Below are positions 6,258 to 50,920 of a stretch of DNA of 64,000 bases, piece after piece. A model generated the notes under the pieces. The model did no database searches, was not told the DNA's origin, and worked only from the letters and a program-made list of their open reading frames with translations. The position numbers and the translations under genes were made by a program. How positions within the stretch are numbered: position 1 is the first letter of the stretch; every line of letters begins with the position of its first letter. The DNA is from a virus (lineage: Duplodnaviria > Caudoviricetes). The DNA lies in IMG/VR virus record IMGVR_UViG_3300027996_003878. One strand, written 5' to 3'.

Positions 6258-6447
6258 TGGCTAAAGCTATGCGCTCCCTTCGCCTTCTCGTGATTTAATT
6301 GCCTTAATTATTTAAATCATTATTATTTTATAAATTAAAATTACGATGAGATGAGAGGGCAAGAGAGCCATATATTGGACAGCAGCTATACAAAAGCTCA
6401 ACAATAACAATTAAGTCTTTTATTTTAAACAACAAAGGAAGATAATT

Positions 6448-6627
6448 ATGAATAAATCAAAAGTATGTTTTATCGCCAGCCTTGCATCCGTTGCGGCTTC
6501 AATTGGAATTTGGGTATACGCAGGAGGTCAGCTTGGTGACGCACACGCACACGCAGAGCGATGGGGACTCTTTGTGGGCTTATGGGCGCCTACGCTCATG
6601 GGTATGGAAAACCACTTGAAGAAATAA
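6448..6627 (+). CDS. small membrane protein (59 aa, not in ORF track)
   Basis: MNKSKVCFIASLASVAASIGIW...ERWGLFVGLWAPTLM; AAGGA SD; opposite strand to neighbours. Confidence 0.75.
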   Translation: MNKSKVCFIASLASVAASIGIWVYAGGQLGDAHAHAERWGLFVGLWAPTLMGMENHLKK

Positions 6628-11894: not shown

Positions 11895-12216
11895 CTCCGG
11901 CTGTTGGACTCGAACCAACGACCTAGTGGTTACTTACTACTACAGCTTTCACTGCCACAAAAGTGTTTGTAGTCTGGACTATATCATCACCCTCGGCTTT
12001 ACGTTAGGGTGTCCGGCGCTAATGTGGTAATTAAGAGGACTTTACCTCTCCACTAGCCTCTGCACCTTCCAGCGGTGTACTGCTGGCTTGGCTCAGGATT
12101 AGCATATCTGCCACGCAAACTTAGCCTTCCCTGAATTCACCGGATTTACATCATAAAGTTTCCTCCATGAGCTGCTAACTCACAGCCACTTGCTCTACCA
12201 ACTGAGCTAAGCCGGA
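11895..12216 (-). tRNA. tRNA-Asn(GUU) split by group I intron at 35/36
   Basis: Exon1 12216-12182 ends AGTGGCTGT; exon2 11932-11895 begins TAACCACT; spliced loop CT GTT AA. Confidence 0.92.
11933..12181 (-). mobile_element. group I intron (249 nt, no ORF)
   Basis: P AATTCAGGGAA, Q AATCCTGAGC, R CAGAGGCTA, S GATATAGTCC; follows U, ends in G. Confidence 0.92.
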
Positions 12217-12435
12217 ATGGTGTGCCTCTAGCTACAATAACCAACTTAGCTATCTTGCATGTCGGAGGCACACTTAATTTTATTTAACAAAAAAACTTCT
12301 CTCGAAATAATTAATATGTGGGCTTAAAAATAACTATTTGATAAAATATTAATAATTACAAAGCCATCACAAACGTCTTGTAATTGTTCGTGTAATATAA
12401 TCATGTCGATACAAAGGTCAACATCTTCTTGCTTG

Positions 12436-17215: not shown

Positions 17216-17302
17216 TTAATAACCTATTAAAGATTTATTTATAAACATATCACTTGCGCTTGGTACCCTCGGCAGGATTCGAACCTGCGACCATCGGCTT
17301 AG

Positions 17303-17970
17303 CATACTAACTACAGCTTTCGCTGCCAGCCGAAGCTGTTTGTAGTCTGGACTATCTCTTCACCATTTCAGGCGCAGCACGTATAGTCTCTACGGAACCT
17401 CACGATAATCAGAAGCTAAGTTTACACTTTTCTTTTGATTATTCTTTGGAGTCTCTACCCTAAGCGTAACGCTTTTTCCAAAATCAGATGGGTTAAGATA
17501 GTAACAATTATCAGTCTGAGGACAGTAGATACAATAGATGTCTATAAAAGATTTATCTACTGGCACTGTATGAGTGCCGTTTTTATCTGTCCAACAAGAA
17601 CTGAACTTAACTTCTAATCTACCATTAGAAGCATCACGATACTTAACCTGAACAGTTTTAAACTGTCCATCTTTCCATAGAACCAAATCAAATGGCGCAT
17701 GTTCTGTTTCTGGACTAAGTGTTAAGTAACCTTTCTGAAAAAGGTCACACTTAGCCTTTAAGACTCCTAGATCACCCTTGTTTTTAGTATGATGATTTAT
17801 CATGGTGGCATTATTTTACCATAAGATCAACATACGGATTAATCGTAAGTTTCCACGGGATTGTCATCAGCACTACCTGTTAAGAGTTCCCCGTTATGGT
17901 GCTGTCCGTTTTATAGGTTTCTGTTTTCCTATAAAGGCTCCTATGTAGCAGCAGAGTTGCTGCAATGCTA
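17303..17970 (-). mobile_element. group I intron (668 nt) with homing endonuclease ORF
   Basis: P ATAACGGGGAA, Q GACAATCCCGTGG, R GTAGAGACTA, S GAGATAGTCC; terminal G; 3' end nearly identical to the tRNA-Asn intron. Confidence 0.92.
17390..17803 (-). CDS. group I intron-associated PD-(D/E)XK homing endonuclease (PDDEXK_5, I-Ssp6803I-like)
   Basis: KGDLG..., PFDLV, TVQVKY, DIYCIYCP motifs; located inside the intron. Confidence 0.88.
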   Translation of the reverse strand: MINHHTKNKGDLGVLKAKCDLFQKGYLTLSPETEHAPFDLVLWKDGQFKTVQVKYRDASNGRLEVKFSSCWTDKNGTHTVPVDKSFIDIYCIYCPQTDNCYYLNPSDFGKSVTLRVETPKNNQKKSVNLASDYREVP

Positions 17971-18092
17971 AAGGCCACTGCTCTATCCGGCTGAGCTACG
18001 AGGGCGTGATTTTTTTTGATTTCCTTCCTTTCAATTGCTCTCGACAAATCAAGATTTAAGAAAAAGACCTGTCTAAGTTATTAAATTTACTT

Positions 18093-26204: not shown

Positions 26205-27344
26205 TTATCCTGCGTGTTCTCTTAAAATATTAAGCATGCGTCGAAGCGGTTCTGCCGCTCCCCAAAGAAGCTGATCTCCAACGCTAAATGCTCCCAGATA
26301 AGTTGGACCCATTTTTAATTTATGAATCCTTCCAATTGGTATATTTAATGTTCCGGTTGTTGCTGCCGGGCTGAGTTGGCGTATTGTATCTTCTTTATTA
26401 TTATCAACTGCGGTAACCCATTGATTCGCTTGATCAATAACTTCAACAATCTCATCCAACGGAATATCCTTGCGAAGCTTAATTGTAAAAGCTTGGCTGT
26501 GGCAACGCATGGCTCCGATTCGAACGCATATTCCATCGATGGGAATTGCATTATTCTTGGTGTCAAGGATTTTGTTTGTTTCCGAGTGTCCTTTCCACTC
26601 CTCTCTTGTCTGACCGCCTTCAACCTTTCGATCAATCCAAGGAATCAAAGAAGCAGCCAAAGGAGCGCCAATCATAGAAGTGGGGTGATTATTTGATCGA
26701 ATTGCCTCAGTAACAGCGCGATCAATATGCAAGACTGAACTTGATGGATCACGAAGGAGATCTTGATTATAAGTATCAATACTACTGGAAGCCAAGTGAC
26801 TCATTTGAGATACAAGCTCTTTTAGCTGCTTTGCGCCCGCTCCGCTTGCTGCCTGATAGGTCATTGAACTAAGCCACTCAACCCAACCTTCTCGAAAAAG
26901 GCCGTGAAGAGAAAGCAACATCAAACTAACAGTACAATTCCCACCAATAAAGTCCAAAATGCCATTTTTGATGCCGCTATCAATGGCTTCTCTATTGATT
27001 GGATCAAGAGCAATCAATGCATCGTCATCCATACGCCGAGCGCTAGCTGCATCAATCCAAAAGCCCTTCCAACCAGCTTTTCGCAGTGGCCCTAACACCT
27101 CACGTGTATAATCACCGCCTTGACAGCTTATAATGACGTCATTTATTTTCAACGCATCTATACTCTTTGCATCATCAAGTTTGCCGCAATCCCTTCCTAC
27201 GTCAGGAGCAGGCATTCCCACTTGTGAGGTTGAGTAAAACCGAGGCTCAAGACCTTCAAAGTCTTTTTCAACACGCATGCGATCCATCAACACCGAGCCG
27301 ACCATGCCGCGCCATCCAACCATACCGAGTTTTTTTATTTTCAT
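26205..27344 (-). CDS. asd: aspartate-semialdehyde dehydrogenase
   Basis: GWRGMVGSVL, GGNCTVSLML, TYQAASGAGA, CVRIGAMRCHSQ, GDQLLWGAAEP. Confidence 0.98.
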   Translation of the reverse strand: MKIKKLGMVGWRGMVGSVLMDRMRVEKDFEGLEPRFYSTSQVGMPAPDVGRDCGKLDDAKSIDALKINDVIISCQGGDYTREVLGPLRKAGWKGFWIDAASARRMDDDALIALDPINREAIDSGIKNGILDFIGGNCTVSLMLLSLHGLFREGWVEWLSSMTYQAASGAGAKQLKELVSQMSHLASSSIDTYNQDLLRDPSSSVLHIDRAVTEAIRSNNHPTSMIGAPLAASLIPWIDRKVEGGQTREEWKGHSETNKILDTKNNAIPIDGICVRIGAMRCHSQAFTIKLRKDIPLDEIVEVIDQANQWVTAVDNNKEDTIRQLSPAATTGTLNIPIGRIHKLKMGPTYLGAFSVGDQLLWGAAEPLRRMLNILREHAG

Positions 27345-47262: not shown

Positions 47263-48498
47263 ATGGAAGATCGTTGGACAGATATCGTGCGCCCGTATTC
47301 TTTGGAAGATGTTAAAAGAATACGAGGCAGTATAAGAATAGACCAAACTTGGGCAAAATTAGCTTCAGAAAAACTTTGGCGTTTGATGAAGCAAAACGCC
47401 CCAGTTCGCGCACTTGGCGCAATGACTGGAAACCAAGCGATACAGCAAGTGCGCGCTGGCCTTAAGGCAATTTATGTAAGTGGCTGGCAGACGGCAGCGG
47501 ATGCAAATAGTGGTCGTCAGATGTACCCAGATCAAAGCTTATATCCTGTAAATGCTGTCCCATTGCTGATTGAAAGAATTAATAATGCACTTCAAAGATC
47601 AGACGAAATAGACGTCGCAGAAGAAAAATCAGACATTGATTGGCTTGTGCCACTTGTGGCGGATGCAGAGGCCGGATTCGGCGGTGTATTAAATGCATAC
47701 GAATTAATGAAATCAATGATTAAAGCGGGCGCTGCGGGCGTTCACTTTGAAGATCAATTAAGCAGCGAAAAAAAATGTGGTCATCTAAATTCCAAAACTT
47801 TAGTGCCTACGTCTAGCTTCATTAGAACCCTAACTGCTGCAAGATTAGCCGCAGATGTTTTAGAGGTTCCTACGGTTTTGATTGCAAGAACAGATGCAGA
47901 AAGCGCTGGATTTATAACTAGCGACGTAGACCCCCGCGATCATGATTTTATTGACAAATCAGAAAGAACTCCTGAAGGTTTTTTTAAGTTATGTGGAGAT
48001 CCTATGGAAAGATGCATACGAAGGGGACTTGCTTACGCACCCTACTCAGATCTAATTTGGATGGAAACATCCACTCCTAACCTAGGGCAGGCTAAAAAAT
48101 TTGCAGATGCAATTCATGAAAAATACCCAAATAAAAAATTAGCATACAATTGCAGTCCAAGCTTTCATTGGAAGAAATTCTTATCCTCCAACGAAATGAA
48201 AGACTTTCAAACGGAACTTGGAAAATTAAATTATACTTTTCAATTTATAACTTTAGCAGGTTTTCATGCCTTAAACTTTAGCATGTTTGAGTTAAGTCAG
48301 AATTATAAAAATAGCGAAATGTTGGGGTATTCTTCTTTGCAGGAAAAAGAATTTGAAGCCTATTCGCAGGGATACACCGCAATAAGGCACCAACATGAAG
48401 TTGGCGTTTCCTATTTTGATGAAGTTCGCAAGGTTATAAATGGTGGAGATGATAGCATGTCTGCTCTTACCGGCAGCACCGAAGACGACCAATTTTAA
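47263..48498 (+). CDS. aceA: isocitrate lyase
   Basis: [55 protein letters not shown]. Confidence 0.98.
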
Positions 48499-48513
48499 TA
48501 GGAAACAATTAAT

Positions 48514-49287
48514 ATGAAAGTTTTAAGAAAAGGCGCTAAAGGTCCAGGCGTAAAGGCTTGGCAAATTTTTTTACGAGGGCAAGGCTACCATATTATAGCT
48601 GATGCTGACTTTGGAAAAAAGACAGTGTCAGCCACTAAGGCTTTTCAAAAAAAGAAAAGACTTGTCGCTGACGGTGTTGTTGGCAATGCAACCTACGCCG
48701 TTGCAATGCTATTGGGGTTCGAGGTCATAAAAGATGATGAGTCTGACATTTACAGCGCCAACTGGCCTCCAAAGCCAGATTTTAAGCCAATAGTTGGAAC
48801 CGCTGCACGTCAAAGAATTTTTGGAAAATTCAATTTCAAGCGGATGAGAGTTAAAGGCAACCCAGAGGCGATTAGAATATTAGATAATTGGGTTGAAGAA
48901 AATATAGTTTATGTAAAAATCCCACAATTAATAGGCGTCAAAGGCACTTATAGAAGAAAAACATTCGCATTTCATAAGTTAGTCGCAGAGCCTGTTAAAG
49001 ATTTATTTCAGGCCTGGGATGATGAGGGATTGTCTGATCTTATTCTTTCGTGGGGAGGTTCTTTCGTACCTAGATTTATAAGAGGATCAAACACAAGCTT
49101 AAGCAATCACAGCTTTGGAAGTGCGTTTGATATAAATGTTCCATGGAATTATTTAGGAGCACGGCCGGCTTTAGTCGGTAAAAAGGGATCAGTAAGAAAG
49201 CTTGTGCCAATTGCCAATGAATTAGGATTCTATTGGGGCGGTCATTTCCGACGCAAAGATGGAATGCACTTTGAGTTCTGCGGATAA
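48514..49287 (+). CDS. peptidoglycan-binding domain + M15 family peptidase (endolysin-like)
   Basis: PGBD (ADADFG..T..A..AFQ...ADGVVG); SNHSFGSAFDIN, DGMHFE. Confidence 0.9.
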   Translation: MKVLRKGAKGPGVKAWQIFLRGQGYHIIADADFGKKTVSATKAFQKKKRLVADGVVGNATYAVAMLLGFEVIKDDESDIYSANWPPKPDFKPIVGTAARQRIFGKFNFKRMRVKGNPEAIRILDNWVEENIVYVKIPQLIGVKGTYRRKTFAFHKLVAEPVKDLFQAWDDEGLSDLILSWGGSFVPRFIRGSNTSLSNHSFGSAFDINVPWNYLGARPALVGKKGSVRKLVPIANELGFYWGGHFRRKDGMHFEFCG

Positions 49288-49324
49288 AAACTAAAAAATT
49301 CAATAAAAAAAAGCTACAAATTAA

Positions 49325-50920
49325 ATGAATAAAATATTATTTCCAGAATTAAAAAACGAAAACGAGAAAAAAATACTTTCTCCAGAAGCGCTTAACTTTC
49401 TAAAAGATTTATTTAATGAGTTTAATGGCAAAATAAAAAATTTATTAAAGCTAAGAGTTCGAGATGCTAAATTAATTTCAGATGGTCAGCTGCCAAATTT
49501 TCTAGAAGAGACAGAGGGTATTAGAAATTCCACTTGGCAAATCTCTTCGGTACCAAAAGACCTTCAAGATCGTAGAGTAGAAATTACAGGTCCGGTTGGA
49601 AGAAAAATCATAATTAACGCCCTTAACTCTGGCGCTAATGTTTTCATGGCTGATTTTGAAGATTCAAACTCACCGACCTGGAAAAACACTTTAGATGGAC
49701 AGATAAATCTCTTTGATGCTGTAAGAGAAGAAATAAGTTTATTTGATAAAGTAAAAAATAAAGAATATAAATTAAATAAAGATCACGCAACCTTGATGGT
49801 AAGACCTCGTGGCCTTCACTTACTTGAAAAAAATATTCTCATAGAAGACGAACCAATCCACGGCTCTTTAGTTGATTTTGGCTTGTACTTTTTTCACAAC
49901 GCACAAGAGCTTTTAGACAAAGGCTCCGGGCCTTACTTTTACTTACCAAAAATAGAGCACTTTAGAGAAGCTGCTCTATGGAATGAAGTATTTAATTTCT
50001 CACAAGATAAGTTAAATATTAAAAGAGGTACAATAAAAGCTACTGTTTTAATCGAAACTTTACCAGCTGCATTTCAGATGAATGAAATATTGTATCAGCT
50101 TAAAGATCATTCCGCCGGGCTGAACTGTGGAAGATGGGATTACATTTTTAGTTTTATAAAAACGCTAAAAGATCACGAGCAATTTACCCTTCCAAATCGA
50201 AGTGATTTGACAATGGATAAGCATTTTATGAGATCTTATACGCAATTGTTGATTCAAACATGTCACAAAAGAAAAGCACACGCTATGGGCGGCATGTCTG
50301 CATTTATACCAATTAAAAACGATGAAATGGCAAATAACGCTGCATTAGATGCCGTGAAAAAAGACAAAATGCGCGAAGTAAAAGACGGTCATGATGGAAC
50401 ATGGGTTGCGCACCCTGGATTAGTTGAAATGACAAGAAAAATCTTTGACGAGTACATGCCGACAAAGAATCAAATCAATAATAAAAGAGAAGACGTAAGC
50501 ATAACTGCAAATGATTTACTTCAAACCCCTCAAGGCGAGAGAACTGAAGATGATATTAGAAAAAATATAAACGTGTCATTGCAGTATATAAATTCCTGGC
50601 TATCAGGGACTGGCTGCGTTCCCATTAACAATTTAATGGAAGACGCAGCGACCGTTGAAATATCTAGAGCGTTAATATGGCAATGGATAAAATTTAAGGT
50701 AAAAACCGACAGCGGTATAATTGTAAGTAAAGAAAAAATTCAAAAATTACTGCTTGACGAAGTCGCCAAATTAAAAACAGATAAAAATATCAAAGAAAAC
50801 AACGAGACATTTAAAAAAGCAATTGAAATATTCTCAAATGTTTCAATGAATACAAGTAATTTTAATAATTTCCTAACAACCGATGCTTATGAAGAGCTAA
50901 TCAAAATATCCCAAACATGA
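49325..50920 (+). CDS. aceB: malate synthase A
   Basis: DRRVEITGP, ADFEDS, VRPRGLHL, GLNCGRWDYIFS, AMGGMSA, DGTWVAHP, MEDAATVEISR. Confidence 0.98.
   Translation: MNKILFPELKNENEKKILSPEALNFLKDLFNEFNGKIKNLLKLRVRDAKLISDGQLPNFLEETEGIRNSTWQISSVPKDLQDRRVEITGPVGRKIIINALNSGANVFMADFEDSNSPTWKNTLDGQINLFDAVREEISLFDKVKNKEYKLNKDHATLMVRPRGLHLLEKNILIEDEPIHGSLVDFGLYFFHNAQELLDKGSGPYFYLPKIEHFREAALWNEVFNFSQDKLNIKRGTIKATVLIETLPAAFQMNEILYQLKDHSAGLNCGRWDYIFSFIKTLKDHEQFTLPNRSDLTMDKHFMRSYTQLLIQTCHKRKAHAMGGMSAFIPIKNDEMANNAALDAVKKDKMREVKDGHDGTWVAHPGLVEMTRKIFDEYMPTKNQINNKREDVSITANDLLQTPQGERTEDDIRKNINVSLQYINSWLSGTGCVPINNLMEDAATVEISRALIWQWIKFKVKTDSGIIVSKEKIQKLLLDEVAKLKTDKNIKENNETFKKAIEIFSNVSMNTSNFNNFLTTDAYEELIKISQT

Follow-up and report, generated by a model that had tools for sequence, protein, structure and literature searches.

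A phage tRNA-Asn(GUU) gene split within its anticodon by an ORF-less group I intron akin to those of bacterial tRNA genes

The tRNA-Asn(GUU) gene in the phage DNA analysed here is interrupted within its anticodon by an intact, ORF-less group I intron of the type known from bacterial tRNA genes, and this intron is very probably active, self-splicing and otherwise a neutral passenger. The whole stretch analysed, hereafter the window, comprises 64,000 nt of the IMG/VR record IMGVR_UViG_3300027996_003878 (Caudoviricetes); the putative viral status of the window, and of the IMG/VR contigs compared with it below, rests on classification and an endolysin match. The anatomy and homology of the intron, the covariation of its helices and its distribution can be read directly from the sequences; from these we infer its splicing, which is probably autocatalytic, its mode of spread and its neutrality, the last as an assumption. 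An earlier note on this DNA had placed exons of 35 and 38 nt around a 249-nt intron at site 35/36 of tRNA-Asn(GUU), and these coordinates and sizes proved exact. The gene is organized as follows.

12216-12182, minus strand: tRNA-Asn exon 1 (35 nt), with acceptor, D arm, 5' anticodon stem and C32 U33 G34 U35
12181-11933, minus strand: ORF-less group I intron (249 nt), supported by an Rfam score of 95.8 bits, the helix table and covariation
11932-11895, minus strand: tRNA-Asn exon 2 (38 nt), with U36 A37 A38, 3' anticodon stem, variable loop, T arm, acceptor and discriminator G73
12394-12421, minus strand: candidate promoter upstream of the Asn gene (TTGACC, 16-nt spacer, TATATT), a consensus match only

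The two exons are undamaged and, when joined in silico, give a standard 73-nt cloverleaf that ARAGORN identifies as tRNA-Asn with the anticodon GUU; the discriminator G73 follows directly on the acceptor stem and CCA is not encoded. The anticodon loop is split as CUGU/UAA, that is at 35/36, within the anticodon itself. When introns are allowed, ARAGORN reports the gene as tRNA-Asn(gtt) c[11894,12216] i(36,249), while neither this gene nor the split tRNA-Arg of the window is reported by ARAGORN in its default mode or by the Rfam tRNA model. Since split tRNAs are missed by such standard scans, phage tRNA inventories are incomplete, as are the arguments on codon usage and anti-defence that are built on them. 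A 9-bp inverted repeat (GTGTGCCTC/GAGGCACAC, 12219-12272) ends 3 nt upstream of the tRNA-Asn; inside it lies a second palindrome, TAGCTA...TAGCTA, whose loop resembles that of a D arm. The repeat may represent a processing signal or a tRNA remnant.

The identity of the intron is given by a match to Rfam RF00028 at 12191-11955, which covers the full length of the model (positions 1-253) and reaches 95.8 bits (E = 1.9e-23) against a gathering cut-off of 50 bits, values at which a chance match can be dismissed. No ORF lies inside the 249 nt, the only listed neighbour being a 41-aa GTG frame across an exon boundary, and the P, Q, R and S elements are all present (AAUUCAGGGAA, AAUCCUGAGCC, GUGCAGAGGCUA and AUGAUAUAGUCC), as had been proposed for an ORF-less group I intron from the letters alone. 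The intron starts with GAGUUAGCAGC and ends with ...GUAGUAAG, the terminal (omega) G being located at 11933. Every one of the helices P1 to P10 pairs, with zero mismatches. Their layout is given below, the window coordinate being 12182 minus the intron position.

12170-12179, minus strand: internal guide region (intron nt 3-12), with the partners for P1 and P10
12152-12169, minus strand: P2, 7 bp with a GAAA tetraloop, 7/7 pairs changed on both sides among relatives
12093-12144, minus strand: P3 5' strand (12144-12138), P4, P5, P5a and P4 3' strand
12064-12092, minus strand: P6/P6a, with the loop AGUACACC kept in the closest relatives
12054-12063, minus strand: J6/7 and P7 5' strand, GCAGAGGCUA
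12024-12053, minus strand: P7.1, an extra 30-nt hairpin between P7 and P3' (nt 129-158)
11976-12018, minus strand: P3 3' strand (12018-12012), P8 (12009-11990), J8/7 and P7 3' strand AUAGUCC
11933-11975, minus strand: P9 module, the stretch common to the Asn and Arg introns

P1 is formed by the last 6 nt of exon 1 (GGCUGU) with intron nt 7-12 (GCAGCU), all six pairs being made and U35·G7 being a wobble, and P10 by UAAC of exon 2 with intron nt 3-6 (GUUA; 4/4 pairs). P3 comprises 7 bp (U38-G44 with C164-A170), and P7 pairs G124-A128 with U201-C205 inside GCAGAGGCUA...AUAGUCC, where G124-C205, beside the bulged A123, is the presumed guanosine-binding pair. The P7.1 hairpin reads GUGG-AGAGG-UAAAGU-CCUCU-UAAUUA-CCAC. 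The P9 module consists of a closing stem (CUAC/GUAG), the hairpin P9a, a second hairpin P9b with a GAAA loop, and a tail UAAG with the terminal G249. Within P6a, the loop AGUACACC (12074-12081, intron nt 101-108) takes the form RGUACACY in four introns, those of the contigs L302, L246 and L239 and that of the window, a conservation that hints at a tertiary contact.

By motif inspection the intron carries the traits of subgroup IC3, that is GAAA at L2 and L9b, receptor-like motifs in P5 (GCUAAG/UAUGC, resembling the 11-nt receptor) and in P8 (CCCUAAC...GAGGG), and no P5abc. IC3 introns, whose J7/3 is compact, are not known to have a helix between P7 and P3'. In the window intron J7/3 measures 35 nt, the 30-nt hairpin included, as opposed to 3 nt in 23 relatives. 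On account of this helix the intron is called IC3-like with P7.1 rather than plain IC3.

The anatomy suggests a conventional splicing route. The precursor tRNA-Asn would be transcribed from the minus strand, and pairing of the exon sequence GGCUGU with the guide GCAGCU (P1) would present the U35·G7 wobble as the mark of the 5' splice site, which a free guanosine docked at G124-C205 of P7 would then cut. UAAC of exon 2 would pair with GUUA (P10), the terminal G249 would take the place of the cofactor, and the exons would be joined. The expected outcome is a tRNA-Asn of 73 nt ending in G73, and CCA would then be added by the cell. The GAAA loops L2 and L9b, together with the receptor-like motifs in P5 and P8, may brace the fold, and P7.1 would be an added peripheral element.

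This fold is supported both by energy and by covariation. Free-energy folding alone gives P2 to P6, P7.1 and P8 (z = -2.3). When the window intron was aligned with 24 relatives over nine helices and 46 pairs, 93.0% of the cells paired, compared with 27-49% when the partners were slid, and both sides had changed at 29 of the 46 pairs; the observed values were reached by none of 500 shuffles. P3 occurs in nine compensatory combinations at a fixed distance to P7, and P7.1 covaries among relatives (GUGG/CCAC, CUGG/CCAG, GCGG/CCGC). The guide covaries with the exon target among relatives, and the guide sequence of the window is also found in 14 other viral Asn 35/36 introns. The one exception concerns P7, where the window intron has G125·U204 and the 24 relatives have a nearly invariant A-U; this could weaken the core. 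Such a G·U pair would be expected if the intron were a decayed, non-splicing remnant and the tRNA-Asn a pseudogene, as would the absence of an endonuclease, and no other copy of the 249-nt variant is known. However, the helices, the guide, P10 and the terminal G are all intact, the exons are undamaged and the Rfam score of 95.8 bits equals that of the best Patescibacteria locus (95.7 bits), and we regard decay as very improbable. An intact, probably active intron remains the preferred reading.

The stretch that the Asn and Arg introns have in common opens with a 19-mer, which occurs in at least 79 viral contigs of IMG/VR. Split sites, mapped by ARAGORN on the exons together with a U(-1)/terminal-G rule, were distributed as follows.

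tRNA-Asn at 35/36: 16 viral contigs
tRNA-Leu(UAA) at 34/35: 12 viral contigs
UCA-anticodon tRNA at 34/35: 9 viral contigs
Leu at 33/34: 4 viral contigs
CAU tRNA at 33/34: 3 viral contigs
Thr, Phe, Ser, Asn at 33/34: few viral contigs each

With a split tRNA in about 50 of the 79 motif-bearing viral contigs, group I introns are no rarity in the tRNA genes of phages. The 16 viral Asn 35/36 introns have U(-1) and a terminal G as in the window copy. The nearest whole-length relatives of the latter are viral Asn 35/36 introns of 207-211 nt (in L003, L007, L011, L018 and others), with 68-69% identity over 199 columns. They share its site, guide, P9 module and tail and, like it, belong to tRNA clusters of phages, in some cases with a split Arg(UCU) as neighbour, but they are without P7.1, their P5a and P6a are shorter, and the genes flanking them are nearly all different from those of the window. 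PHROGs gave almost no matches on the genes flanking the viral relatives. A short frame at 6415-6624 of the window has 40-50% identity over 56-69 aa to frames in five contigs with 210-nt Asn introns, and is the sole protein link found between the window and these phages.

Neither the exact 5' junction nor a pattern for the P7.1 architecture had a match in IMG/VR, and hence no close relative of the 249-nt variant was recovered there. BLAST of the window gene and of a viral relative against 50,697 GenBank phages returned partial core matches and no split Asn gene, and no close relative of the window phage was found. Uninterrupted tRNA-Asn genes with an identical anticodon arm are present in 15 viral contigs, the whole tRNAs being identical at 38-58 of 73 positions, and empty target sites are thus available. 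The split tRNAs with a UCA anticodon (L001, L015, L025, L058-L061, L074 and L076) carry introns of the same family at 34/35; these tRNAs are either opal suppressors or tRNA-Trp of recoded phages, and if they are suppressors, the intron could set the time of a genetic-code switch. On the 330-kb viral contig L002 (5452-12057), a 202-nt intron placed as sister to the 35/36 clade interrupts a tRNA-Asn at 33/34; the neighbours of this gene are a CUA-anticodon tRNA, an RtcB-type tRNA ligase of 809 aa (phrog_1075) and a further two Asn genes, both uninterrupted. In the window itself, genes for isocitrate lyase, malate synthase and aspartate-semialdehyde dehydrogenase (47263-50920 and 26205-27344) occur together with a phage-like tRNA and early-gene region.

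The window holds a second split tRNA, whose intron had been proposed in the earlier note to share a single lineage with the Asn intron, one that had colonised both tRNAs. The loci relevant to this proposal are listed below.

17261-18005, minus strand: tRNA-Arg(UCU), split at 34/35 by a group I intron of 668 nt (17970-17303)
17803-17390, minus strand: PD-(D/E)XK endonuclease ORF in the Arg intron
L077:6273-6580, L018:154-460 and L044:6457-6766: split Arg(UCU) 34/35 loci with 231-nt ORF-less introns

With introns allowed, ARAGORN miscalls the split Arg(UCU) at 17261-18005 as tRNA-Stop(tta) i(37,649), and its junction is correct only by the U(-1)/terminal-G rule. The near-identity claimed for the 3' parts of the two introns does hold, at 46 of 53 positions, although 7 of 67 3' modules from unrelated viral contigs match the Asn module at least as closely as that of Arg does. 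A recent spread of one lineage from one tRNA to the other would account for the similarity of these modules, which so few foreign modules equal, and for the location of both introns within one tRNA cluster. It is, however, difficult to reconcile with the 5' two-thirds, which are identical at only 123 of 204 positions (60%), and with the 19-mer opening the shared module being present in at least 79 viral contigs. The proposal also fails by the yardstick set in the earlier note itself, for among 38 introns ordered by their identity to the Asn intron, that of Arg comes 32nd. An earlier AU test that included a long Arg branch gave p = 0.27; the addition of three ORF-less Arg 34/35 introns resolved the test, and sisterhood of the two window introns was rejected (delta lnL 36.7, AU p = 0.00075). 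In a core-only tree, from which P1 and P9 were left out, the two are found on opposite sides of a 93/99 split, and in a tree that includes the Arg 34/35 relatives the window Asn intron is placed with its viral Asn counterparts (87/82).

The nearest relatives of the window Arg intron, in turn, are the 231-nt ORF-less Arg(UCU) 34/35 introns of L077, L018 and L044 (63-64% identity), and each of these contigs also has an Asn 35/36 intron of its own. The three contigs have a syntenic cluster Asn-Glu-Gln-Thr...Arg. A recent transfer between the two tRNAs is accordingly very improbable, and what stands of the proposed kinship is membership of the same broad family. By trees and identities alike, the Asn intron and the Arg intron represent two lineages, each tied to its own site, which travel together in phage tRNA clusters; neither is a copy of the other. 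The 3' module, found in at least 79 viral contigs and in various tRNAs, is family-wide. That the Asn intron had taken this module from the co-resident Arg intron was also considered, and was dropped as equally close modules exist in unrelated contigs.

A pattern for the P7.1 class (GCAGAGRCUA, 20-48 nt, AGCGCC, 25-50 nt, AUAGUCC) matched at least 120 metagenome contigs, and in 67 of the 120 matches listed the intron interrupts a tRNA-Asn at 35/36, again with U(-1) and a terminal G. P7.1 is present in the metagenomic and bacterial Asn 35/36 class and absent from the 207-211-nt viral Asn introns. Among the 67 introns, 19 are 425-590 nt long, and most of these have a plus-strand ORF with an HNH-like motif; on five of the long-intron ORFs, Pfam matched HNH weakly in all five and just above the gathering score in two. 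The long HNH-ORF introns are located at L218:1850-2245, L271:550-942, L276:371-868 and 16 other metagenome loci, and in the three named the HNH-type ORF has its start at intron nt 16 and reads in the direction of the ribozyme core. Two long metagenome contigs encode PEPCK, NadA and sigma-54 regulators, which indicates that they derive from ordinary bacterial chromosomes.

In the core-only tree the window intron belongs to a starred clade (98/97*), itself inside the P7.1 clade, together with a Thr 34/35 intron (L302), two CAU 36/37 introns and a Ser 33/34 intron. Its identity to the L302 intron is 84% on 161 columns, and BLAST gives 80% for a stretch of 191 nt. To judge from the sequence, the window intron is a P7.1 core combined with a phage-type P9 module, a combination that may stem either from retention or from exchange. 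In Patescibacteria, RF00028 matches occur in 39 of 121 sampled genomes, and in eight of the best 30 loci it is a tRNA-Asn that is interrupted at 35/36, U(-1) and the terminal G included, in agreement with the mention of such introns from this group in the earlier note. The strict P7.1 pattern gave a single match in 401 Patescibacteria genomes, in a Thr gene, the Asn introns having surfaced by the Rfam-based search; a 15-mer of the 3' junction, compared with genome contigs, gave 119 listed matches, all due to chance and none in a split tRNA. Position 35/36 of tRNA-Asn is hence a recurrent target in phages, Patescibacteria and ordinary bacteria. This distribution would fit a lineage that is old, specific for the Asn 35/36 site and widespread among both bacteria and phages, with an HNH homing endonuclease in part of its members. 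As the window intron has no endonuclease, it would be a passive passenger, probably inherited with the tRNA cluster, and could spread only by way of a related endonuclease-bearing copy or by recombination.

It may also be asked whether the intron is kept because it is useful, either since guanosine-dependent splicing gates or times the supply of tRNA-Asn, or since the gene is made immune to homing endonucleases of rival phages or to insertion at the anticodon-loop site. The Asn 35/36 and Arg(UCU) 34/35 pair is kept in several divergent viral contigs and HNH-bearing relatives exist, and an intron-occupied site cannot be cut by the cognate endonuclease, as is familiar from the homing cycle. The same ordinary cycle, however, already predicts the persistence of ORF-less introns; moreover, no regulatory element and no link to a defence gene is seen, and anticodon nucleases act on the mature tRNA, which is identical after splicing. 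Usefulness of this kind is therefore unlikely. Nothing in this analysis supports gating of tRNA supply, escape from anticodon nucleases or escape from integration, all of which had been suggested at the outset. In more general terms, phage tRNA clusters might hold introns that are specific for their sites and conserved as a set (Asn 35/36 along with Arg(UCU) 34/35, a pair that recurs in three other viral contigs, and elsewhere introns in Leu, Thr, CAU and UCA tRNAs), retained since splicing times tRNA availability or an occupied site shields the gene. We consider this unlikely, but if true, the introns in phage tRNAs would have a function in infection, as a layer of their own, and would not be mere passengers. 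By itself the element would be an ordinary self-splicing intron, and its value is that of an entry point.

Compared with known systems, the window intron resembles the classical IC3 introns of cyanobacterial tRNA-Leu(UAA) (34/35) and, presumably, Azoarcus tRNA-Ile(CAU) in its location in the anticodon loop and in its size (~200-250 nt), as well as in the lack of P5abc, the GNRA loops of P2 and P9 and the receptor motifs of P8 and P5. It differs from them in the tRNA and site occupied and in the extra hairpin between P7 and P3'. The td, nrdB and sunY introns of T4 are likewise self-splicing, phage-borne group I introns, but are located inside protein-coding genes. According to the review by Hausner, Hafez and Edgell (2014), phage introns known to that date were all in protein-coding genes, despite the many phage tRNA genes, and in the literature searched here no intron in a phage tRNA has been described since.

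The closest counterpart is bacterial. Williams (2020; bioRxiv 10.1101/2020.01.27.920355) raised the number of bacterial tRNA intron types from 4 to 21, and the seed 'Pam37.Asn.4Ug' of the alignment has the site, guide, P7.1 and AGCGCC of the window intron. The features of the Asn.4Ug type are all found in the window, namely a tRNA-Asn(GUU) cut after the fourth nucleotide of the anticodon loop, U(-1) and a terminal G. The seed also shares the guide AGCAGC, the arrangement GCAGAGRCUA-hairpin-AGCGCC (P7.1) and the extended 7-bp P3; unlike the window copy, it has a long L1 insertion, no receptor-like UAAG in P5 and a simple P9 hairpin in place of the three-way P9 module of the phage family. The 3' design of the window, ...AGUCCAGAC-hairpin-GCAGYGAAAGCUGU-tail, is matched by the Leu.3Ug and Ser.3Ug seeds. 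The carrier of Asn.4Ug is there a bacterial chromosome, whereas that of the window intron is a phage. The window intron is a clear addition to the known Asn.4Ug type, unusual for its phage tRNA setting and, as a modest second point, for the combination of P7.1 with an extended P9.
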